Below, one piece after another: positions 391 through 41,912 of a DNA stretch of 45,523 nucleotides. Made by a program: the position numbers and the translations under genes. The stretch comes from Neolecta irregularis DAH-3. Taxonomy: Eukaryota. Location of the stretch: assembly GCA_001929475.1 (NCBI GenBank), contig LXFE01001251.1, positions 1-45,523 of the forward strand, in the 5' to 3' direction. The notes under the pieces were generated by a model, which saw nothing but the letters and a program-made list of their open reading frames with translations, made no database searches and had not been told where the DNA came from. Every line of letters starts with the position of its first letter. Within the stretch, counting starts at the first letter, position 1.

Positions 391-1046
391 GTTGGGAAAG
401 GGGAAGCCGTTGGGGTAATCACCTCTACGAATTTGGTCCGGCGCAGTAGCTTTGTCAGACTCGGCGTAATAGAATGACCCCCCTGAAAGCCCAGTCTATT
501 CCTCGAAACCTATTATCGCGCGTGAATCGTAATAGAAATGATCCGAATTTAACAGACTAACCGCGATGGGTTCGACGTGGTAGGCCACTTTTGGAATAAT
601 CTATCTATACTCGTCCAAAACGACTATTATATCCATTTTAAAATCGGCTGGATTCGAACCGTATATTCCATCTATATACATATACTCTCAAGCACGACAT
701 CCAAGATGGTGCATATCTGAAATGTAGGTGACTGGCGCTTTGATTGATACAAATACCAGCCTTAAGTATCATCTCAAATGTCGGTCTGCCAGAACAATAT
801 AACGCTGTGTCTTGTAGAATCTAGACGCTACGCATGAATTGATTCTGGTGCATTGTTAAAAGATGAAATTATTTTCACAAGTAACCGCATTTTTAAAAGG
901 AAATTTGATGTAATTGATACTACATGACTACAGCTCTCATCTACGTCATTCTAATTGATTCTAAATTTAATATGAATTAAAAGGATGTACCTTACCCTAA
1001 TCTCAATTCCTAAAGTTGGTATATGTAAAAAAGGGACTTCAACTCT

Positions 1047-1525
1047 ATGCCAAGCGACCTAGAATATATGCGTCTCGCTTTATCTGAAGCAAATAAATGC
1101 AAACCAACTCGTTCAGCATTTTGCGTAGGCGCAGTATCCATCTACCTCTAAAAGTCCTGAAATAAACAAAGGTTCTAGTCAAACATGACCGAATTATATC
1201 AACGGGGTATTCACGCGAACTAGATGGAAATACACACGCCGAAGAATGTGCGTTTTTGAAATTATCTTGCAAGGAAGAAGCAAAAGGATGTACAATGTAC
1301 ACAACAATGGAACCATGCGGTCCAATTCGCTTGAGCGGGAAGAAACCTTGTACGCAATGGTGTATTGAAGCCGGTGTTGAGCAGGTTGTAATTGGAGTAC
1401 GAGAACCGGGTACATTTGTTAAATGTGAGGGAATTGAGATGTTGAGGAGTAACAGGATCCAAGTTTTTTGTTTGAATGAAATGGAAAGTGAATGTTTAAA
1501 AGTAGCAACAAGAGGTCATATATAG
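1047..1525 (+). CDS. Stand-alone RIB2-type (DRAP) deaminase, cytidine/dCMP deaminase fold
   Basis: MPSDLEYMRLALSEANKC..AFCVGA / intron / VLVKHDRIISTGYSRELDGNTHAEECA..YTTMEPCGPIRLSGKKPC..GVREPGTFV. HAE and PC..C zinc motifs; the GYSRELxGNTHAE signature matches the Rib2 C-terminal domain. Confidence 0.85.
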
Positions 1526-1616
1526 ACTAGAAATGGCATTTTGTTTAGACTACCGCCGCCGTGCACTCGAAGAAAATCTTCAAGTCAGTACAAGTTCTTT
1601 TAATCCAAATTTTGGA

Positions 1617-3992
1617 CTATTGCCGGCGTCCACTGGGTATCTGCAAAAGAAAATCTACGAGTGAATACAACTCTTTCAAGAGACATACCTTCTGCCGCTT
1701 TCTTCTGGGCAGGCCTAGAACCAGGTCTCGTCCTCGCCGCTTCATGATTTCTCAATTCATCAGGAACTTTACTAATACTACTCTTTGAAAGCATCAATCT
1801 CAAATCAAAAAAGGTATCTTGGTCGTCATTTGTAAGCAAGGTGATCGCCACACCGGATTTTCCTGCACGGCCCGTTCTACCGATTCGATGAGTATAATCT
1901 TCGATATTTTTGGCCATGTTGTAATTTACGACAAGGGAGACATCAGAGACGTCGATACCGCGTCCAGCTAGATCCGTAGCGACGAGGATATCAGCGTTAC
2001 CCGCTCGTAATTGAGAAAGAGCAGCTTCTCTTTGATCTTGGGATTTTCCTCCGTGTAGGGTAACGGCTCGCCAGCCGAGGTTGCTTAGAACTTTGGCGAG
2101 ACCGTCGCAGTTTCGTTTAATGTTTACAAAAATTATTATAGGGGCAGCGAATTCATTCGAATTGAGCATTTCTTCAAGACGTTTCCTGGACGATATCAGT
2201 TTTTGGTAAAGAGTATTGCATACTTTTTCTTATCCTCGGGGACAAATTCTACTCGTTGTTCAACTGTATCGACTGCTTGTCCAGCATTTCCAATAGTAAC
2301 GATTGCAGGTCTACGTAAATACTTTCTCGCCAACCTCTCCAAACTATTCGGCATCTACAATTAACAAGGGAGAAACAAAGGGATGAATACGGTAGCACTA
2401 AACATGACAGTTTGTCGATAGCGTTCCTTGCCACCAATCCATTTACTCATTTTCACAGGATTTTCTGCATCTTCGGTATCCGGTTTTTGATTTTGAACAG
2501 GCAAGGCTTCAAGGATACCCTGCACCGCCTCTTCAAATCCCAAATCGATCATACGATCAGCTTCATCCAAAACGACATACGCGCATTGATTTAAAACTAG
2601 TACCCGACGTTCAAGACAATCGATAAGTCTACCGGGAGTGGCAATAACTATTTCGGCGCCTTCGCGGAGATTATAAGCCTGTTCTTCGATCGTGTGACCG
2701 CCGACTATACTAACACATTTAAACCCTACCGGTTTCGCAAATTTATTCGCTTCGAGTTCGATTTGTTGCGCTAGTTCACGGGTAGGCACAAGGGCTATTG
2801 CGTACGGTCCATTCGTCTTGTTAAAATCGTCTAGTGGAGGCATTTCCATGATATAAGACAACATTGGCAGGACAAATGCCGCTGTTTTACCAGATCCGGT
2901 TTCAGCTATACCGATTATATCTCGAAGGGCAAGACCGATTGGGATTGCGGCCCGTTGAATGGGAGAGGGTTCTTTATATCCTACTTTTGCTATTAATTCC
3001 ATTATTGTTTTAGGTAAATTCGATTCTTTCCAGTTTCGAATAGGGTTAGGTATACCACCACCTCTAGATTAGCCATCTCAACATGAGAAAAGAACACCTT
3101 TAGTCACAATACTGAAATCTTCTTTAAATATCCGCCAATCGCGTTCTTTCATTTGATCCAAGGGTTTCTCAAACCAAGGACGATCCTGCCAATCGACCTT
3201 GGCAGCTCTCCGTTGCTCCAATTCCATCAACCGTCTTCAAAATGAATATAAAAGAATAAACATGGATATACCTCGTTCGTTCTTGGTCTTGGCCATCTTT
3301 AACAAGTTCCGCAACATATGCAGTTCTATTCTTGTGTAAATCAACATCATCGAATCCAGCCAATTTTCCTCTGCCGTAAAATTGGGCGTCGTGACGGTTG
3401 GCGTAGAGTGGGTTGATATCAGTTGACGTATCATCTTGTACATCCCAATCGAAATTGAACTTTTTATCATTAATTTTGCGTTTCTTCTTCTTGGGTTGTT
3501 CCAAGCCGAGGTATTTATCCTGGGATTAATAGATATAATTTGACATGGTACTTTGAGGGCTTTTGCTTCTTCTTGTTCCATTGTACGGGGTTCTCCTTTT
3601 GGCAGCTCTTTAGGAGGGGGAGGGGGAGGTGGCGGCATATCGGGTCTAGTTCTTCCCGGTCTTTTATTTCTCATAGATGATGGTCCAGTGGGTGGACCTC
3701 GTGTGCGAGGACCCGTAGGAATAACACCTTCCATAGCCTCAGTAGTATGGGCAAGAAACTCTTGGAAGAGTTTCTTGCCATTTTCTTGTTTTTCTCGTTC
3801 TAGTTTGACTTTTTGGGATCGCCGTTCGAGAGCTAGAGCAGCTCTCTCTTGTTTTGACAAAAATTTGGGTTTTGAATTTGCAGCTTCCTCTTCTTTTTTC
3901 TTCTTGATTAGTTCTTCTAGGGATGGTATTGTTCTGCTGGACGGGGGTTGGGGGAGTGGAGGAGATTTTGGTGGAGGTGGGATGGCATTCAT
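1617..3992 (-). CDS. PRP28: Pre-mRNA splicing DEAD-box helicase Prp28/DDX23 (multi-exon)
   Basis: KPKFLSK N-terminus, [46 protein letters not shown]. Last exon is ambiguous (see findings). Confidence 0.95.
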
Positions 3993-4091
3993 GGTGTTGG
4001 TTGAACAATGACCTGTGTTCACATGCAGTAATTTTTGACAACTATAGAAAGATGTTTCTAAAGTTATTTGTTTCCAAAATTGTAGATAGCG

Positions 4092-4199
4092 GGGTTGAAT
4101 TTGCAGTTTCTTCTTTTTTCTTCTGGTTAGTTCTTTGAGGGATGTGATCGTTCTGCTGGGCAAGGGGGAGTGGAGGGGAATCTGGGGAGGTGGGATGGC
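4092..4199 (-). repeat. Degenerate duplicate of the PRP28 5' coding end (source about 3867-3986)
   Basis: Aligns by eye: GAATTTGCAG..TTCTTTTTTCTTCT..TTAGTTCTT..AGGGATG..GTTCTGCTGG..GGGGGAGTGGAGG..GGAGGTGGGATGGC in both places. The copy has indels and lacks the ATG. Confidence 0.8.
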
Positions 4200-4257
4200 T
4201 GACCGAGTAATACAATAATACAGTCTTAACTATAAAAGACGGTTCTAAGATTTGAAA

Positions 4258-5153
4258 TTAGGTATCACGAGGTTCATATGCAGGTAGATAAAGCTCTTCT
4301 TCAGCAGGTACGGTTATATCTGGGGGTCTAGTAGAACTGGAAGGGTCAAGGGGAGCACTAGCTCTTGAACGGAGGTCAGCTTGTTGTGGGATGGATGGTT
4401 TTCTAGGATCAATTTGGGAGAGAATGTCGAAATCGTCTGGGTTTGCTGGAACTGAAGGTTGCACGGGGTGACATTGTCCTGGTGGGCAGGGAGGGGCAGA
4501 AGGGAGGAGAGCTTGTTGCGCAGCGACGAGTTGGGCTTTTGTGTCCGGTTGGGGCGGTTGTATGGGAGAAGGTTGTATGTGGGCAGTGTCTGGTGTGACT
4601 GGAATGTCTGGTGAGTCTGGCATGTGGGGAGTGACTGGATTGGTAACCGGATTCTGGGAATTCCTTAAACTGTCGACGGTTCCGACGACGACTTCAAAGA
4701 GAAAAGTGTGGACGCCGCGTTCTCGCCGAAGACGGTCAGTGTCGAGGGTGCAGTGGTCGTCGCCAGGGGTGTCTGACTGGTCTCCTGCAGGTTTCCTGAT
4801 GTCTGACTGGTCTATGGTAGTTTTCCCGGAGAGGTCGACTACGATCTCGCAAAAGTAGCTGAAGGAGGCCAGGGGGGCGTTTGCAATGGTGGGAAAGACG
4901 TCAGCGGGGAGCCTGATGCGCGGGGTGGCGGAGAAGTCGAGGGATTTTGGGTCTATGAAGAGGGGGACGACGACCTGGGCGAGGTCCTTTCTGTAGGACT
5001 GGCGGGTGCTGGGGTTAGGCTGGGGGGGTGGCGGAGGAGGAGCGTACCCCTTTGCGTGTATTCTGGAGAGGCGGTAGAGGGTGACGATGATGCCGCGGAG
5101 GTTCTTGAGCGGCCTGGCGTGGGAGATGTGGACGCAGATGGCGAGGGCGTCGC
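4258..5153 (-). CDS. RIM8: pH-signalling arrestin PalF/Rim8, 3' part only (5' part lost in the assembly gap)
   Basis: Manual translation across one intron: GDALAICVHISHARPLKNLRGIIVTLYR..SYRKDLAQVVVPLFIDP..RLPADVFPTI..FSYFCEIVVDL..LDTDRLRRERGV..FEVVVGTVDS..EELYLPAYE. These blocks match my recollection of the PalF arrestin C-domain and its C-terminal LPxY motif. Confidence 0.85.
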
Positions 5154-5192
5154 CTGGCGGTTAGGGCGGGGGGCTTTGGGGGGGGATCTGGG

Positions 5193-5202
5193 NNNNNNNN
5201 NN
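5193..5202. other. Scaffold gap (10 N); true size must be larger
   Basis: Run of N. The 5' part of palF/RIM8 is absent on both sides. Confidence 0.95.
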
Positions 5203-5557
5203 AACTGCTGACTGGTGGGTACTGGTATGGTATACTGCTGACTGGTGGGTACTGGTATAGTATGCTGCTGTACTGGTGAGTACTGGTATAGTATGCTGCT
5301 ATCCTGGTGGGTACTGGTATAGTATACTGCTGTACTGGTGAGTACTGGTATAGTATGCTGCTGTACTGGTTGGTACTGGTATAGTATGCTGCTATCCTGG
5401 TGGGTACTGGTATAGTATACTGCTGACTGGTGGGTACTGGTATAGTATGCTGATGTACTGGTGGGCACCGATATAGTATGCTGCTGTGCTGGTGGGTACT
5501 AGTATAGTATGCTGCTGTACTGGTGAGTACTGCTGTACTGCTCTCCTGGTGGGTACC
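5203..5557 (+). repeat. Minisatellite with a 30-31 bp unit, at least 10 copies, truncated by the gap
   Basis: Consensus CTGGTGGGTACTGGTATAGTATGCTGCTGTA repeated head to tail with recurring variants and no spacers. Confidence 0.97.
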
Positions 5558-5597
5558 GGGTAGAGGTGTCAGGCTGGCCGCCCCCGCACTCCACCAA

Positions 5598-7369
<1,772 letters not shown>

Positions 7370-7469
7370 CAGCATTTTCGCATTGTGATTTGGAGAGAAA
7401 GATGTTTGATTGTCTGGTATTATTCGTATAAATTCTTATTCGGGTGGGGAAAACAATATTTTCTTTTAA

Positions 7470-8016
7470 TCATTTGTGTTCTTCTTGATCTTTGCGTTTT
7501 ATATCGTTACGTGAACGAGCCGCGAATGGTGTTGATCTTTTCGCCTCAGGATGTCCAGATTGTTTCATCCAAGCTTGAGATTCCTTTTCAATATCCAGAA
7601 TTACTGCAAAATCAGCCCAAAGTCGAACCCACCCAAAACGTACATTCTTCCCAACTTTTTTCACTTTCTGGATTTCCTGTTCCTAATTCCTTTTTCAAAT
7701 CGACTTTTTGCCCGGTTTGTATGCGTTGAATAACATCTTTTAATATCTCAATCTTGCACTTTGACCAAACCAAATATTCGGAATAAGATTGTTTTATATG
7801 TAATAAATGGATAGCTTGTGACCCGAATATAAGCCACAGAAATAAAAGCGTGGTATTGGAATTAAATAGCCATTTCGTTTTATTGCTGGTAGATTGAACT
7901 GGAGAAAAAGAGTCTGGTGATGATGAGGATAGCAAACGGGATGACAACCGTGAGGTGATTTTGAAATTGAGGCTTTTGGAAATTAGGAAGCGAGGGAATA
8001 TATGTGACATAAACAT
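7470..8016 (-). CDS. Small predicted mitochondrial membrane protein, DUF5321-like (2 exons)
   Basis: Presequence-like N-terminus, one hydrophobic segment, and IFGSQAIHL..KIEILKDVIQRIQTGQKVDLKKELGTGNPESEKSWEE. A GTACGT..TGCAG intron joins it to the 7470-7664 frame. Confidence 0.7.
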
Positions 8017-8123
8017 TTGTCGTTCGTTAAAAGTAGAGGAAAAACACGTTTGTTGAACGGATTTGAAAAGGGGGTGGGAGATTGGTATAAATTTTCAACA
8101 CCTTGTAATTATCACATTTCACA

Positions 8124-9349
8124 ATGAAAACTATGCATGACTCGTATAATGACGAAAAACAGCCTTGTATCGTAGGAAAAGTCGATCGGTCATCGTTAGA
8201 ACAAAAATTTGGAACGCGGTATCTTGTTGATATCGAAAAGGCATTTGAATATAATGCTTGGTATTTTCCTGTTTTATCAACAATTTTCTGATAATAAGGG
8301 ACCACATCGATTGGGGAGATGAACATGAGGAGTATGCTAAAGAATGTATTGCACGGCAAAAGAAAGCTCCTGTACAGCCTCATGATCGAGGTATTACGAT
8401 ATTCTACGATAAAGAGTTTGCTAAACCCCAACAAGAACAGGTGATGAAAGATCCAGCTGGGTTTTGGAACACTTTCTACTCCAACTGTACGAATACATTT
8501 TTCAAAGATCGACATTGGATTCAGAGGGAGTTTCCGGAATTATTGGAATGTACAACTGAAACAGTGAATATAATATTTGTGATGATTTAATGGCTAGGCT
8601 GGACGAAAGTATATCGTAGAAGTCGGGTGTGGAGCAGGAAATACCATGTTTCCGCTACTCAGTGCGAATCGAAACGACAGACTTGTCGTGCACGGAGTAG
8701 ATTTTTCAAGTGTTGCAGTAGATGTTGTACGGTCGAATGAGCTATTTGCAAAACATGCAGCCAACGCCCGAGCGAGTGTATGGGATCTTGCAGACCTAGA
8801 TGGAAAGCTCCCAGCGGGAGTGGAAGAGAACAGCGTAGACGTCGTCATCCTGATCTTTGTATTTAGTGCGCTGGTGGGTACATGGGCGTGCGTGTATGCT
8901 GACAATAAAGGCACCAGAACAGTGGAGACAGGCAGTCGACAATGTGTCTAGGGTATGAAGAAGGGTTGATACCGGCCAACCTGGACAGATGCTTCGGGCG
9001 GGAGGGGTTGTGCTGTTCCGGGACTATGGCCGGCTGGACATGACACAGCTGCGGTTCAAGGACCAGAGGCTGCTCGACGACAATTTCTACATGCGCGGGG
9101 ACAAGACGCGGGTGTATTTCTTTGACGCGGGCAAGACGGGAGGGCGAGACACGGCTGACACGGACAGGCGAGGTTGCAGGGGCTTTTGGACGGCGATTTG
9201 GGATTGTGCAGAACACTGTAGACCGGCGGCTGCTGGTGAACCGCAAGCGGGGGCTGAAGATGTACCGGGCGTGGGTGCAGGGCAAGTTTGCGAAAACACG
9301 CGGGGCGGCCGGGGGCGAGGGCCCGGACGGAGAAGGGAGGGGTTTCTGA
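8124..9349 (+). CDS. TRM140: tRNA m3C32 methyltransferase (Trm140/METTL2 family)
   Basis: [91 protein letters not shown]. Confidence 0.92.
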
Positions 9350-9429
9350 GGCGGGGAAGCGCGGCGGCGGAGAGCGTATGGGCCGCGAACACCAACCTTT
9401 AAAGCTCGCCCTGCCGCCGCTGCCGAGTG

Positions 9430-10999
9430 ATGGCTTTGCTTGTGTCTGCACCGGCCAAGTGCATCCTTTTTGGCGAACATGCAGTTGTGCATGGCACTGT
9501 ATGCGCTGCCGCGGCTGGACTGACGCGCCCAGAGTGCGATTGCGGCATCCATCTCGCTGCGTGCGTACCTGCTTGTCGCTGCCCGCCCGCCCGGCAGTGC
9601 GGTGCAGCTGCTGGTGCCTGATCTTGGCCTGAATCTGGCCTGGCCGGTGGATTCTCTGCCCTGGAGCCAGGTGCCTGTCGCGCGCGGGTTGGCCGCTGTT
9701 GCAGCGGGTAGTAGTGGTGGTGCCAGTAAACCTACTACTGCGGGTAGTAGTAGTGCCAGTAAACCTACTCTTGCGGCCAGTAGTAGTGGTGCCAGTAAAC
9801 CTACTACTGCGGGTAGTACAACTACTACTACGGCCTGCAAACCTACTACTGCGGGTAGTACAACTACTACTGCGGCCAGTACAACTACTGCTAAGGCGAG
9901 CACAGCACCGTCCGCTGTTCCGTCCGCGCTACACCCGCCGCTGGTCCGCGCCCTCGAATCTCTGCTCGCCGGTACCGATCCCAACCACTTCTCGACCGCC
10001 TTTGCCTTTCTCTATCTCTACCTGCATCTCGCATCCCGCTCGAGCCCCGCCGCTTTCCTCGTCCGCTCAACCATCCCGCTCGGTGCCGGCCTCGGATCCA
10101 GCGCCGCCTTCAGCGTCTGTCTCGCCGCCGCCTTGCTCTTTGCAAATGGCCATATCGCCCGACCCTGCACTGGTCCGCCCTCTCCAGCCGCCCGCATCCT
10201 CATCGACGAATGGGCCTTCCTCGGCGAGTGCTGCCTCCACGGAAACCCCAGCGGCATCGACAACGCCATCTGCACTGCCGGCGGAGCGATCCTCTTCAAA
10301 AAAGGCGCTTCAGGGGAGAAGCCCCGCAAGACCTTCATCCCAGAGTATCCTAACCCCTAACTCCTAAACCTAATCCTCAAGCTTTCCCTCAATCCCCCTC
10401 ATCCTCACAAATACCTTCCAGTCACGCCAAACCGCAAAACTCGTCGCCAAGGTCGCTGCCTTGCGCGACTCCCATCCCTCAGTCGTTGCCCCGGTCTTCA
10501 ACGCCATCGATGCCACTGTAACCCAGGCTTACCAGCTCCTGACAACCTCGCAGACTGATTTGACCGCAGATCGCACCTCCTGGACCGCAAGACTCGGTCA
10601 ATTGATAGACATCAACCATGGCCTCCTAGTCTCTCTCGGCGTAAGCCACCCCAAGCTCGAGAAGGTTAAAGAGGTCGCCCATAAAGGAAATGTCGGTTGG
10701 ACAAAACTGACTGGTGCCGGTGGTGGTGGTTGTGCTATTACAGTGCTCCGAGATGGTAAGATCCACATCTATTTTCACTGACCCCTTGAGGCGTCACGAG
10801 AGAGGCCCTGCGAGTACTAGAAGGGAAATTTTTAATTGAGGGTTTCGAAATGTTTGAGGTTGTGCTCGGTGACAAGGGCGTTGCCGTTCATGGTGCATAC
10901 ACACCAATCACCGAAGCAGCCTTCCTTGGGGCAAAAACACATAAAGATCTTCTCGCACTACTCAGTACAGAACACGTAAGGGGTTGGGAATATTGGTGA
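9430..10999 (+). CDS. ERG12: Mevalonate kinase
   Basis: SAPAKCILFGEHAVVHG, STIPLGAGLGSSAA (GHMP ATP loop), HGNPSGIDN, LGVSHPKLE, KLTGAGGGGC. Confidence 0.96.
9704..9892 (+). repeat. Imperfect minisatellite (about 33-42 bp units) inside ERG12
   Basis: Units like GCGGGTAGTAGT(GGT)GGTGCCAGTAAACCTACTACT, 4-5 copies, all length changes in multiples of 3. Reads AGSSGGASKPTT / AGSSSASKPTL / AASSSGASKPTT / AGSTTTTTACKPTT. Confidence 0.93.
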
Positions 11000-11138
11000 T
11001 GTATACTTGCGATTTCATAGTAGAGTTGAACAGCCTATCATCTGAACCACATTGTCTCTTTCATCTATCCTGTTTAGATTGTTTGTAAATTCATTGAAAT
11101 TGTCCCTTCCCCCCAAGTTTTCCACAAACAAATTCCAC

Positions 11139-12300
11139 ATGGATGACCAAGAAGAATATGTACTGGTTTGGGTGTCCGTTGCTAACTTGTAGAAACCCTT
11201 GAATTTCACAGACGGATCTTGGGACGACATCATTCCCATTCCTCAGGAAGATGACCCGCATTCCATCGCCGAAATTGCCTATACCCAAGAATACAAACAA
11301 GGAATGTCATATTTGCGAGCGATCATGGAGAAGGAAGAGTTTAGCGACCGAGCATTGGACTTGACTGAGTATATTATCGCTATGAATCCGGCACATTATA
11401 CTGTATGGTAAACAAGGTCCGTCAATATATCCCGCTCATGCAAACAGGGCTTATAGAGCAAACATTCTTTTCGCTTCGAACGAAGATCTCCGGGATGAAC
11501 TGAAATATATTGAACCTTGGGCTGAGCGCTTTTCAAAAAATTATCAAATATGGTAACTCCAATTCAAGTCGAGACCTAATAACAGGCATCACCGGCAGAC
11601 TATTATTAAAAATCTCAGAGATCCCTCTGGTGAATTGGGCTTTACAGCTACAATTCTCAAAAAAGATCCCAAGAATTATCACATTTGGACATACAGGTCT
11701 CGCGAAGGTCTGTTGAGTATCTACTGATATACAGGCAATGGGTTATTCAGGAATTCAGCCTATGGGAAGACGAGCTTGAGTTTATCGAGAAACTACTGGA
11801 AGAGGATGTGAGAAATAACTCTGCCTGGAACCATCGGTTCTATACCACTTTCTTTCGACAAGATAAACTACCGGAGAATGCTATAATTCAGCGGGAGATT
11901 GAGTAGCTCTATATCCTTTCGATTGCTAATCGATAGTTATGCCAAAGCCTCAATACCTATTGCACCACAGAATCCTTGTCCATGGAACTATCTAAGGGGG
12001 TACCTATTATTTCTCGCATTCAGCTTATGTTTCAGGATATTTGAAAAGACCGGTACTCCGCTAACCGAACTGGAATCTCTATGTCGTCCTTACGTTCCCG
12101 AAGATAACGGACAAGAGTGCCTGGTTTCGCCACAGGCTATGGATTTGTATGCCGATATATGCGTCATTCAAAAGAATATACAGAAAGCGCAACTCATCTA
12201 TGACTTACTTGCACGTCTGTACGACCCTATTCGCGAAAATTATTGGAAATACAAAAAAAGTCAGTTGACTAAAGTCGACTCGGCTGCTGAGGCTGTTTAA
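11139..12300 (+). CDS. RAM2: Protein farnesyltransferase/geranylgeranyltransferase-I alpha subunit
   Basis: WDDIIPIPQEDD, YLRAIM..EFSDRALDLT, NPAHYTVWAYR, KNYQIWHHR, KNYHIWTYRQW, DVRNNSAWNHR, PQNPCPWNYLRG, YDPIRENYW (PPTA repeats). Confidence 0.95.
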
Positions 12301-12512: not shown

Positions 12513-12640
12513 ATCCTTGTGCTAGGGTTTTAAGCGTGACGTTGAAGGGCAACCTGAGTCCGTTTTATTGCTGATTGAAAACTATTTCATGACCGCTCGC
12601 CGTATCCTTCGGGATATGGTGGAATCTTTGGAAAAACCTA
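12513..12640 (+). ncRNA. U4 spliceosomal snRNA
   Basis: 5' AUCCUUGUGCUAGGG is complementary to the conserved U6 stem-II sequence. Kink-turn stem-loop GAC-GUU-GA-AGG-GCAA-CCU-GA-GUC. Conserved UUAUUGCUGAUUGAAAACU (stem I). 3' hairpin CCGUAUCC-UUCG-GGAUAUGG followed by Sm-like AAUCUUUGG. 3' end approximate. Confidence 0.9.
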
Positions 12641-12836
12641 TTTTGTTCATTTTACAGTCGTTGGGGCCGTACGCGGTTCTGGGGTCTGTAAAGGACAGGG
12701 CAGTTTTTTAAATAAATTTCATTCCAACATACAATTACGTAGCCGCGTGTTACACCTGAGATATTTGTTTTATCTGATTTTTTGGATTATTTAACCCACG
12801 CACCATTCCTTACCGTCTTTGAACATAATCTCTTGA

Positions 12837-29399: not shown

Positions 29400-29734
29400 G
29401 GGTGCGTTTGGTGCGCGCCAAATTTCATAGAATGTGGCTTTTAAAAATTTCAAATTTTTGGGCGCGCGTTTGGTGCGCTCCACATTTTATAAAATTTGTC
29501 CCCGCAGGTTTGGGGCAACGCCACAATACGCCACATTTAAGGAGGATCCTCACCAAACGCGCGCTTAAAATTCAAATTTTTTATAAAATGTGGTGCGCAC
29601 CAAACGCGCGCTGATAATATGAATTTTTTAAAAAGCCACGTTTATAAAATGTGGAGCGCACCAAACGCACGCCTGAATTCGAATTTTAATAAAAAACCAC
29701 ATTTCATGAAATTTGGTACGCACCAAACGCACCC
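29400..29734. mobile_element. MITE with PIF/Harbinger (Tourist)-like terminal inverted repeats
   Basis: 335 bp, non-coding. Starts GGGTGCGTTTGGTGCG and ends CGCACCAAACGCACCC, with about 90 bp imperfect TIRs. The GCGTTTGGTG core occurs twice on the left and four times inverted on the right. Left flank TAA, right flank TTG, so no clean TSD. Confidence 0.8.
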
Positions 29735-38814: not shown

Positions 38815-40659
38815 CTATTAACTGTTAGATTGTAAAATCGGGAAGTGAAGTACATATAAATACTCTGCGCGGAGACGAAAATGGTCTTGCAATTGCCGAG
38901 GATCTAGGACGAGCAAGAGAAGCCTGTTATGCAGGGATCGGGGAAGCGAGCGCCGCTAAGTCAGCCTCACAAAAGATCTTCTCGGCATCAGTGTACTGTG
39001 TGACTAGGCAAAAGTACACCGGGCACTTCCCGCACTTTGGCCTTTGACGAAATGACTAACATCTGCTTTGTTCAGGTTGCCCTAAGAAGTTATCTAATCA
39101 CTAGTGAAAATTCTAGCAATCTTTTCCGCTCGAAAAGCAGATATCGATGATTCTGTCGAAAATTGAGTTCCAAAAAATTGTCTCCAGAATGACGGAATTT
39201 AGCCATTTGAATTCAATCTTGTCTGCTACTTTGATTGCGGCATGAGTGTTGCACGAATTCCCATGCATCACTAGAGAGTCTGATAGGAAGGAATTCTCTG
39301 TAGAGCCATCTATCAAGTGCGACAGCGCCGTACTCTTGGATTGGTAAAACAGGTGTTAAATGACAGCACCCATAGCCAAGACTTTGATAATTCTTTTTTT
39401 AACTTTGAATATTAGCTAGTAGGAATTGAAAGGAATTATGCGCACCCAGTCATACAATTAAAGCTTGCTATGGAACAACTAAAGTAGTATGGTTGATTTG
39501 TGACATGGCTCCAAAGGGTCGCAGTCCTTCTCGGAGGAAGGTTGTCCCCAAACTCGCAAGGAACTTTCGTTTCATCATTTACCCAATCAGTTCTGAACAC
39601 TTGAAATCAACAAGAACTTTTATAGTACTGAGTCATATATATATATTCTGAAAAGACGCTTGGCCTTTCTGTGACTCTTTTGTGGTCGCGTACGAAAAGC
39701 AGCAGAAACTTCATTGCTGACTCATCCCGAGCTGTCATGTGTGTTTCAAAACGCGCTGCAGAAGGTACGCAATGCTAGCAGATGATCAGCGGCCTGGACT
39801 GCAGGCTAATTGTTTCTAAGAAATTGAGAAATAAGTGGAACCTACCAAGAGAAAGGCTGGTAGCAGACTATATGGTCAATTCCGAGGAAGAAAATTGAGA
39901 TGGTTGCGCAGGGGCACACGATTAGAATAAGGCTGCAGTGGTTGCCAAGAACTGGGAAACTGAATGATTCAAAAGCACAGATGGAGAATGTTTGTAGGGT
40001 AGCAAGCATCCTAGTTCAAAAATTTGGAGTTTTCAATTTTGTAGACTCCTTTGTTTACTCGATTCATTACACTTTCAATGGATGGCATTTCCTAATGTAC
40101 GAGTCTTACGATTGGCTGGGTATCTAGCTGCGGACAAATTTCGACAAGCCCATTAAAGCCACACGAAGCCACCCCTAGGAGGAAGGGCGGTCTCGTTCTT
40201 GGTCACAAGACCCTCCCTTTCTGTGGGACGCGTGCTGAAGAAGCGCTAGGTGGTCTGAAGCATCTTCTTTGGCGATCATGGTGTTTCCGTGGATATCTGA
40301 TTAGAACACTAGCCATCACGACCATATAAAACGAATGTCGACGCAGAGTCACGCGGAAGCAGATGCACCCACCAGATGGCGGTTCTCAAACTACCTACTT
40401 CCAGATCCGGCGCGTCGGGTCATGTGGAGTGTGCATACACAGCACAAAGCGCGTTGCAGCGGCTGTCTATAGCGTGGGTGGGTGCCGCGACGCTCGCAGG
40501 CAACGCGCGTGCGCCAAGCGATGGAGGAGCTGATATCCGCATGCGCCGCTGACGTAGCCCTGCAGCGCCGTGATTGGGGCAGAGTCAATGGCGCCTTGCG
40601 TGGCGCAGGCCCATAAGAAGCCGGCGCCTCCCCCGCACGCAGGAGTTTCCTCCCTCACC

Positions 40660-41043
40660 ATGACCAACCCCATCGACATTCCCACCCCCGCAAAAGCAAC
40701 TCCCATCCTGCCCTCGCCTCCACCGTCGCGCCGCCCGTCGGCGACGCTCTTCGGGTCTGCGTCCTGCCGCGACCGGCGCCTGTCGAACCCGCTGCTGCCC
40801 GACCAGCTGGGCAAGCTCGGCCGCAGGCTCAGCCTGGGCATGGGCGTGGGCCGCCCGCCCAGCCCGCCGCTCAGTCCCGCCAACCAGCGTGAGTTCTTCC
40901 TCTGGCTGCGAGACATTTCCGGCTGATGCGCGCCTCCAGTCCCCGCCTTTGACAAGAAACGCCTCTTTGCCGAAGCAAGCAGCCAGCGCGCGGCCTCGCC
41001 CATGGGCGAGCGCATTCTCCAAGGCCAGTTCTCGTTTGATTGA
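40660..41043 (+). CDS. Small uncharacterised Pro/Ser-rich protein (about 110 aa, 2 exons)
   Basis: ATG 40660; canonical intron 40889-40939 (GTGAGT..GCTGAT..CCAG); three RRxS motifs; ends RAASPMGERILQGQFSFD-stop. Confidence 0.7.
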
Positions 41044-41912
41044 TTAAATGCCCCTGTTTTGATGTCCCCCGCGTTTCCCAGCATCGTTATGCTAGTCTCA
41101 TCCGCAAGCAAGGTCCTGCGTGTGGCCGGTCTGCAGGGAATATGTTTGCTAAATAACAAGATTTGCCCTCTATTTGTAGCCTCTCGTGTAAATATGAAGC
41201 GCCTGCTTGATGTATGTCTTCGACTTCTCCAATACCTGTCCTGCTCCATCGATGGAGTTTCACCATCCGTACACATGCACCCGCTAGAAAACGCTAAATG
41301 AAAACTGTGCCTCTAAAATAGAAGTCCTCTTATCTCGTGGGACTAATGCTGGATTGGCCCCCCGGCCAAACTATGTACTTATCCATGCTGTGGGAAAAGG
41401 TAATTCTGCTACGCCGTAATGGATATTCTTGGGTGGCACGCGCTTATACCTGATTATACATATGAAACGTTTTCATGTTTCGGGCCTTCTGCCACACATG
41501 CTCAAATATAGGGTAGAATCACATATGCTACATTCTACGGGAAGCACTTCCAACGCCACTGAAAGTAAACCCAATTATATTCGAGATGATCAAAATATTG
41601 ATTTGCGAGAGACTGTCAACCAACCCTACAAGTTACAACTTTTATGACATGTTGGAGAAAGTTCAAAAGTAGTATATTTAAAACAGGTTTGGATGGATTG
41701 GTTTTGTTGCAGGCGAGAAGCATCTTGAATAGAGATTCCAGCCTTCTAGATAGCCTCCACGATAACAGCAAATTAATCAAATCGAGTCAAAAAAGGCGGA
41801 TAAATCAAAATCTTGAAAGGATACACAATTGTTGCAAGGATACAATGCCGGATGACAAAACTGTTTCCGAGTAGTTGAATTAAGCAGCTTGTAACAACCT
41901 CCAAAATTGCGC

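Follow-up and report, generated by a model that had tools for sequence, protein, structure and literature searches.

What decides the sign of strand skew where a stretch of DNA turns abruptly from G-rich to C-rich, the direction in which its genes are read or a fixed point in the DNA itself? The question is raised by a 45,523-nt stretch from the early-diverging ascomycete Neolecta irregularis DAH-3 (assembly GCA_001929475.1, contig LXFE01001251.1, positions 1 to 45,523 of the forward strand), which is one entire scaffold of 45.5 kb and is termed the window below. Two islands of high guanine plus cytosine (GC) content lie near its left end, and in each of them the forward (+) strand is rich in G to the left of a switch point, adjoined by a minisatellite, and rich in C to its right. 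The sign of the skew was found to be set chiefly by the side of the fixed point on which a site lies, together with a small gene-oriented term. The islands are tentatively read, with a confidence that falls a little short of even, as fixed sites of recurrent DNA breaks, probably meiotic hotspots, at which the resected 3'-ending strands drift to G.

With the mean GC of the window at 0.44, island 1 (about 4250-6700) reaches 0.52-0.66 and island 2 (about 8750-10650) reaches 0.55-0.69. The + strand skew of island 1 is +0.37 to +0.53 on the left and -0.21 to -0.41 on the right, and that of island 2 passes from +0.20 to +0.34 through about zero to -0.27 to -0.44. The original prediction for this DNA had described the same flip in both islands and had placed them at about 4100-6300 and 8850-10520; the GC-rich stretches and the flips are real, and the four 60-base hand counts on which it relied were exact (33/8, 10/28, 35/12 and 10/31 G/C), but the extents had to be redrawn. 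The switch of island 1, at about 5575, lies just beyond the right end of a 31-bp tandem array, within contiguous sequence, and its flip (D = 0.78) exceeded every one of 500 shuffles of 200-base blocks, the highest of which gave 0.72. The flip of island 2 had been placed at a minisatellite in the mevalonate kinase gene ERG12. It does fall inside ERG12, but it is not sharp at the repeat: G and C stay near parity over 9300-9900 (G67:C54 at the neutral sites of 9300-9699), a zone that takes in the 80-bp intergenic region as well as the opening 520 nt of ERG12, followed by an abrupt switch at about 9950, some 60 bases to the right of the end of the in-frame repeat.

The original prediction stood or fell with the skew at fourfold-degenerate and intron sites, and it is at these sites that the skew is strongest. 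Counted in + strand letters, the fourfold sites of the arrestin-like gene on the - strand of island 1 give G56:C8 and G31:C5 (total 87:13), and those of the STE20-like kinase gene on the + strand give G3:C32 and G3:C28 (total 6:60 over 5598-6580; Fisher test across the fourfold sites of island 1, P = 4e-25). Both genes of island 2 lie on the + strand, where the methyltransferase gene shows G10:C2 at its 5' end and G38:C11 in its 3' part, and where ERG12 changes from G23:C15 before the repeat to G15:C59 and G5:C41 after it; the Fisher test gave P = 5e-7 within ERG12 and P = 9e-14 between the two genes. Background fourfold sites from 22 open reading frames (ORFs), read on the coding strand, amount to G372:C456, and their GC is 0.39. 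The introns of these + strand genes follow the local skew, as had been noticed beforehand, the last three of the methyltransferase gene being G-rich and those of the kinase gene and the later ones of ERG12 C-rich.

When each arm is read on the strand that runs 5' to 3' towards the centre, a common profile emerges. The G fraction of neutral sites on this strand is 0.56-0.71 within 400 bases of the centre, 0.28-0.56 at 400-800 bases and 0.16-0.34 at 800-1200 bases, and the G excess is back to background by about 1.2-1.6 kb; the left-arm distances in island 1 are minima, because a scaffold gap conceals sequence there. For C on the same strand, the methyltransferase arm has 0.18-0.20 and the other three have 0.04-0.10, with a background of 0.17-0.21. 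A and T drop jointly along the arms without A/T asymmetry, the centre-pointing strand carrying A56:T42 at 0-400 bases and A108:T99 at 400-800 bases when summed over the arms. The fourfold GC of the inner arms is 0.73-0.75 and decays by 0.8-1.6 kb from the centre. A search for direct and inverted repeats within 3000-11500 revealed no repeat linking the arms and no palindrome between them. A vertebrate-type CpG island was considered and ruled out, as the observed/expected CpG ratio is 0.93 in the background and 0.81-1.01 in the islands.

Gene direction and fixed point were compared by logistic models on 750 neutral G/C sites, with the repeat excluded. The Akaike information criterion (AIC) was 1029 for a constant model, 933 for gene strand, 927 for strand by relative position in the gene and 890 for flexible distances from the ATG and the stop codon, compared with 793-797 for two centres with exponential decay and 778 for the centres combined with gene terms, so that the centre-relative model is ahead of the gene-oriented models by 92-134 AIC units. 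All four arms carry G on the centre-pointing strand, though transcription leads away from the centre in three of them and towards it in one; in terms of genes, three arms are 5' parts with a C-rich coding strand, and the fourth, a 3' end, has a G-rich one. The original prediction held that transcription direction cannot explain the flip, which goes somewhat too far: the centre model is far better, but the published gene-end skew of fungi predicts a flip at a tandem gene junction and contributes a small real term (AIC 778). Its proposal of a strand-polar process acting at a fixed site fits the data, given the 92-134 units by which the centre model leads. The positions of the arms, switch points, repeats and genes are collected in the table.

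Table. Coordinates of the GC islands, tandem repeats and genes discussed, in positions of the window
Feature	Position	Strand	Description
Island 1, left arm	4250-5192		+ strand G-rich, G384:C157, GC 0.57; inside the - strand arrestin-like gene
Arrestin_C-domain gene, 3' part only	4258-5160	-	coding strand C-rich right to the stop codon
Scaffold gap	5193-5202		10 N
Minisatellite 1	5205-5532		31-bp unit, 10.7 copies, 87% matches, score 509; GC 0.47, lower than flanks; G-rich, skew +0.40
Switch point 1, G-rich to C-rich	5560-5590		D maximal at 5581; strongest flip of the window
Island 1, right arm	5576-6700		+ strand C-rich, G199:C370; skew gone by about 6600
STE20-like protein kinase gene	5598-7369	+	10 exons; introns 33-42 nt
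GC-AG intron of the kinase gene	5902-5939	+	within island 1
Methyltransferase gene	8124-9349	+	7 exons; 3' third G-rich on its own coding strand, with the last three introns
Island 2, left arm	8750-9300		neutral sites G69:C28 over 8800-9299
GC-AG intron of the methyltransferase gene	9131-9167	+	within island 2
Island 2, core	9301-9703		peak GC 0.64-0.69, near G/C parity; 80-bp intergenic region and first 270 nt of ERG12
ERG12 (mevalonate kinase)	9430-10999	+	4 exons, 487 aa; introns 34, 37 and 35 nt
Minisatellite 2	9704-9889	+	periods 33/36 and 21/42 bp, scores 121-163; in frame in ERG12
Switch point 2	9900-10000		maximum likelihood at 9950, the sole grid value within 2 log-likelihood units
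Island 2, right arm	9950-10650		+ strand C-rich, G136:C286; neutral sites G9:C99 over 10000-10699
U4 spliceosomal small nuclear RNA gene	12513-12647	+	Rfam RF00015, 90 bits
Third sizeable tandem array	29580-29732		61-bp unit, 2.5 copies; AT-rich intergenic region
Third GC island	40100-41100		GC up to 0.75, richest peak of the window; small + strand gene 40660-41043, fourfold GC 0.90

The association of the islands with tandem repeats, another element of the original prediction, was upheld, since the islands occupy 11% of the window and hold five of its nine tandem arrays (P = 0.0014); of the three large arrays, two adjoin the two switch points. The words CCAGTA/TACTGG, said to be shared by the two minisatellites, are real, but they come down to one 8-mer in opposite orientation, expected by chance about 1 time in 4 on a rough estimate. 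Minisatellite 2 encodes an (AGSSGASKPTT)-like repeat in a variable loop of ERG12, and its third positions are T-rich (fourfold T27/43), with GC-rich flanks. Both repeats are AT-richer at silent sites than the sequence around them, which suggests that they are younger than the compositional drift. Folded as single strands, neither array is unusual (z = -1.6 and -1.7, with 16 of 200 and 5 of 100 shuffles folding as well). A - strand ORF running through minisatellite 1 was judged non-coding, as the repeat period is not divisible by 3 and the lone ATG of this ORF overlaps the start of the kinase gene. Short tandem duplications also occur within the arrestin-like coding region, at 4586-4639 and 4770-4826 (periods 9/18 and 30), and have a CTGACTGGT-like word in common with minisatellite 1. 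The third sizeable array has a mild GC peak without a skew flip some 800 bases away, at 28.6-28.9 kb.

According to the favoured reading, a site or narrow zone would be broken repeatedly and repaired by homologous recombination, most likely as an evolutionarily stable hotspot of meiotic recombination initiation. Stable hotspots are favoured because fungi, to our knowledge, lack PRDM9. Resection in the 5'-to-3' direction would bare the strand whose 3' end points to the break, that is, the + strand to its left and the - strand to its right, and over generations this exposed strand would gain G and lose C at unconstrained sites. The agent may be error-prone filling opposite damaged single-stranded DNA, for instance the insertion of C opposite abasic or deaminated bases, which would turn A, C and T of the exposed strand into G and would produce the GC rise and the skew in one step; simple C-to-T deamination is unlikely, given that T shows no increase. 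If breaks are scattered across a zone, G would be gained on both strands, leaving a skew-free GC-rich core such as that of 9300-9900 and perhaps the whole third island. Break repair would also yield tandem duplications, from which the young, AT-richer minisatellites beside the switch points may have arisen, and a smaller gene-oriented skew of the known fungal kind would be overlaid.

Several features of the islands agree with this reading. Both switches are sharp, and G lies on the strand whose 3' end is directed to the centre, which is the sign expected of resected break ends. Human meiotic break hotspots are flanked by 2 kb in which C and A mutate strand-asymmetrically on the single-stranded side (Hinch et al. 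2023, PMC7615360), and the portions of that report dealing with these flanks describe a mirror asymmetry, a range of 1-2 kb, a symmetric centre and loss of C on the single-stranded side, along with an excess of indels and structural changes at the centre, all of which find a likeness here. In Neolecta, the strand depleted of C is the + strand left of the centre and the - strand right of it, the core of island 2 stands at parity and the arms fade by 1.2-1.6 kb, the centre of island 1 lying partly within the gap. The agreement in sign and in the scale of 1-2 kb with the human hotspots, as presented in these portions of PMC7615360, counts in favour of the break reading. The human signature consists of rare variants at short-lived PRDM9 hotspots, where composition is barely altered according to the same portions, whereas the Neolecta islands would be a fixed and saturated footprint; they also differ in lacking an A-versus-T asymmetry and in being known from sequence alone.

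A number of observations weigh against the break reading. Loss of A is part of the signature of human hotspots, and the loss of A and gain of T expected on the exposed strand are absent from the counts given above, which show no A/T asymmetry. There are two clear cases only, both on one 45.5-kb scaffold, and the centres of the logistic models were picked on the same data, AIC counting them as fitted parameters. The flip of island 2 (D = 0.50) stands about one standard deviation above the mean shuffle maximum of 0.44 (500 shuffles, 200-base blocks), the left arms have roughly double the length of the right ones, and the switch of island 2 lies 520 nt into the coding sequence of ERG12 rather than in a promoter. 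Hotspots in yeast are usually found in promoters. The richest peak of the window, at 40.1-41.1 kb, flips weakly though with the same sign (fourfold C40:G25, left flank about 0), and other mild GC peaks show no fourfold flip, as at CDC6 (G26:C26). Finally, the support comes from base composition, and the repeats may be either cause or consequence of the breaks.

As the chief alternative, the islands may be extreme local cases of the transcription-linked gene-end skew of fungi (McLean and Tirosh) with a separate cause of high GC overlaid, an explanation regarded as unlikely though with real points in its favour. In the sections of PMC3315797 concerned with it, the coding strand of fungal genes favours C at the 5' end and G at the 3' end, fourfold sites included, in G/C only and from an unknown cause; the corresponding sections of PMC3315797 and PMC555766 report it for most unicellular fungi, at fourfold sites, promoters and untranslated regions. 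The likeness extends to the restriction of the asymmetry to G and C, as here, to its presence at fourfold sites and in non-coding flanks, to altered amino-acid usage and to G-to-C flips in intergenic regions, which in a compact genome such a skew would produce at every intergenic region. Three of the four arms are gene 5' parts with a C-rich coding strand and the fourth is a G-rich 3' end, just as this skew would have it, and adding gene terms improves the centre model from an AIC of 793 to 778. The published skew is, however, anchored on genes, genome-wide and modest on average in those accounts, whereas the sign in Neolecta tracks two fixed points, of which one falls 520 nt into a coding sequence, and the skew reaches an extreme of 9:99 in a 2-kb GC island with a tandem repeat, while most neighbouring genes are free of it. 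The pattern of a C-rich 5' part and a G-rich 3' part in each gene was not found: the first 270 nt of ERG12, where the C bias ought to peak, lean to G (23:15), the 5' end of the methyltransferase gene does so too (10:2), and in the arrestin-like gene the C bias persists as far as the stop codon (coding C31:G5). Gene-oriented models reach AIC values of 890-933 against 793-797, with a fitted 5' term of the wrong sign, the other genes of the window are weakly skewed (-0.48 to +0.20), and the minisatellites are left unaccounted for.

The comparison with other fungi bears on the same alternative. Raw flips of similar size are common there, 35 being counted in 411 kb, but none of the 11 strong G-to-C flips sits at a GC excess of at least 0.08; Neolecta stands out in combining a GC peak with silent-site skew and the G-to-C sign. 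One locus of a metagenome fungus, where the published 5' C / 3' G gene skew is very pronounced, displays exactly the pattern that gene-end skew would give at high amplitude: over its positions 900-3300 and 7500-11700, five GC peaks of 0.7-1.3 kb (0.60-0.72) each have a C-to-G flip in mid-gene, and G-to-C flips of up to D = 1.03 occur at three intergenic regions, one of them convergent. The same locus holds an AT-rich insert (1650-2550, GC 0.23) with inverted repeats. On balance, the islands of Neolecta have features in common with the published gene-end skew and are not explained by it.

The repeats might also have come first, as fragile sites that stall replication and break mitotically, in which case resection repair would give the asymmetry without a meiotic hotspot; this is thought quite improbable. 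A tandem array does abut each switch, the strand sign would be identical for any resected break, and a mutational route would require no heterozygosity in a mostly haploid life cycle. Set against this are the unremarkable folding of the arrays (z = -1.6 and -1.7), the third GC island, which has no real array (a 27-bp micro-repeat is its sole repeat), and the compositional youth of the arrays relative to the islands, by which they would not be the cause unless they turn over in place.

Classical GC-biased conversion at hotspots, with the skew as an unrelated by-product of codon or amino-acid usage, is held to be very improbable as the maker of the islands. Species without PRDM9 are well known to have GC peaks at stable hotspots, and peaks attributed to GC-biased conversion occur in birds, dogs, yeast and the 5' ends of plant genes. 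The islands resemble such peaks in a kilobase-scale rise of neutral GC near promoters, in a lineage without PRDM9 and in their effect on proteins, and fourfold GC climbs from 0.39 to 0.73-0.90. Conversion is strand-symmetric, however, whereas the rise in Neolecta is carried by G of one strand; the skew is strongest at fourfold and intron sites, and in each arm one of G and C rises while the other lies below background, which symmetric weak-to-strong conversion does not predict. GC-biased conversion is therefore contradicted as an explanation of the skew and, given the loss of C that accompanies the gain of G, is insufficient as the only cause, though a contribution to the GC rise is possible. 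The hotspot with GC-biased conversion suggested at the outset retains the fixed strand-polar process and the sign of break ends, but conversion by itself is insufficient.

Efficient replication origins, with the flip as a jump between leading and lagging strands, were also suggested at the outset and are the least credible option, since the G-to-C sign is that of yeast origins but the jumps there are about 9% and relax over about 20 kb in the relevant part of Marsolier-Kergoat 2012 (PMC3459929), compared with a raw skew change of about 0.8-0.9 relaxed within 1-2 kb here, the two centres are merely 4.4 kb apart, and the C-rich side of island 2 has no A enrichment (AT skew -0.05). By like reasoning, the same part of PMC3459929 rejects replication for the jump at Candida albicans centromeres, which is similar in amplitude (74%) and range (±3 kb) to that of the islands but lies in gene-free centromeres and, judging from the argument made there, has the opposite sign. 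Coding DNA recoded with intense skew and tied to gene conversion has also been described as GRINS (2021, PMC8256042); in the passages defining them, these are repeats in bacterial multi-module genes, whereas the arms in Neolecta are unique genes with no repeat relation within 3000-11500.

Pfam scans of long ORFs gave an unremarkable gene map, and exon models were built for three genes, those of the kinase, the methyltransferase and ERG12, the last being compared with homologues. The arrestin-like ORF starts within the Arrestin_C domain and breaks off in an intron next to the gap, which must conceal the 5' exons and promoter of that gene; that this gap falls in island 1 had been given as a caveat beforehand, rightly. 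Two further skewed stretches, at 44.2-45.0 kb and 34.3-35.0 kb, were rejected as candidates, as they reflect amino-acid composition and not silent sites (fourfold G22:C16 and G26:C26). A scan for RNA genes detected no transfer RNA or other RNA gene at the island centres, the U4 gene at 12.5 kb being the only one of the window. At the outer edge of island 1, the 5' end of a DEAD-box helicase gene is duplicated about 220 bases upstream (3872-3971 / 4095-4185), a small tandem duplication with 86-90% identity over blocks of 20-30 bases. Introns are very short throughout: all 18 that were modelled in the three genes measure 33-45 nt, with 51 nt for the small gene at 40.66 kb. The literature searches turned up no description of islands of this kind, and the main text of the Neolecta genome paper (PMC5309816) contains no match for intron, GC-rich, recombination or meio-.

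The islands leave their mark on the genes that they cover. GARP residues make up 0.37-0.38 of the island part of ERG12 compared with 0.23-0.26 in 20 homologues, with parity outside the island. Two of the 18 modelled introns are of the GC-AG type, and both lie within GC islands; each departs from the local GT consensus (GTATCC, GTAAGA) solely at the second base. As judged from the rise of GARP residues in ERG12 and from these introns, the pressure is strong enough to prevail over selection and to change proteins and splice sites. The effect is not intrinsic to ERG12, because 15 other fungal ERG12 loci show no GC rise at this gene. Protein searches with ERG12 gave, besides its own record at 100%, matches of at most 55% identity, and none of the 80 fungal loci in a metagenome scan, all at 52% identity or less, is a close relative.

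Island composition also misleads gene prediction. The public ERG12 protein record has 788 aa and includes prenyltransferase alpha-subunit repeats, being a fusion with the downstream gene, whereas ERG12 has its own stop codon at 10997-10999. The order of ERG12 and the downstream gene with prenyltransferase repeats is conserved, as at least 15 metagenome fungal loci match both parts. The assembly may be affected as well: the genome of Neolecta is given in the assembly section of PMC5309816 as 14.5 Mb with 44% GC and an N50 of 16 kb at 199-fold coverage, and islands with central minisatellites may be one reason for so low an N50 despite that coverage.

If the break reading is true, the recombination or break hotspots of an unculturable fungus would be mappable from composition alone. 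Break repair would then rewrite about 2 kb of essential genes, reaching silent sites, introns, splice sites and a tenth of the residues, and yet leave the genes intact, and strand-specific mutagenesis would be set apart from GC-biased conversion as a maker of GC islands. A mechanistic handle would likewise be gained on the gene-end GC skew of fungi, whose cause has been open since 2005-2011. It is conceivable, though doubtful, that the GC islands of Neolecta are sequence-readable fossils of recombination-initiation sites made by drift of all bases of the resected strand to G and not by classical GC-biased conversion, in which case the positions of breaks, the width of the break zone and the length of resection would be readable from a single genome, and that the fungal 5' C / 3' G bias is the genome-wide average of the same promoter-proximal process.

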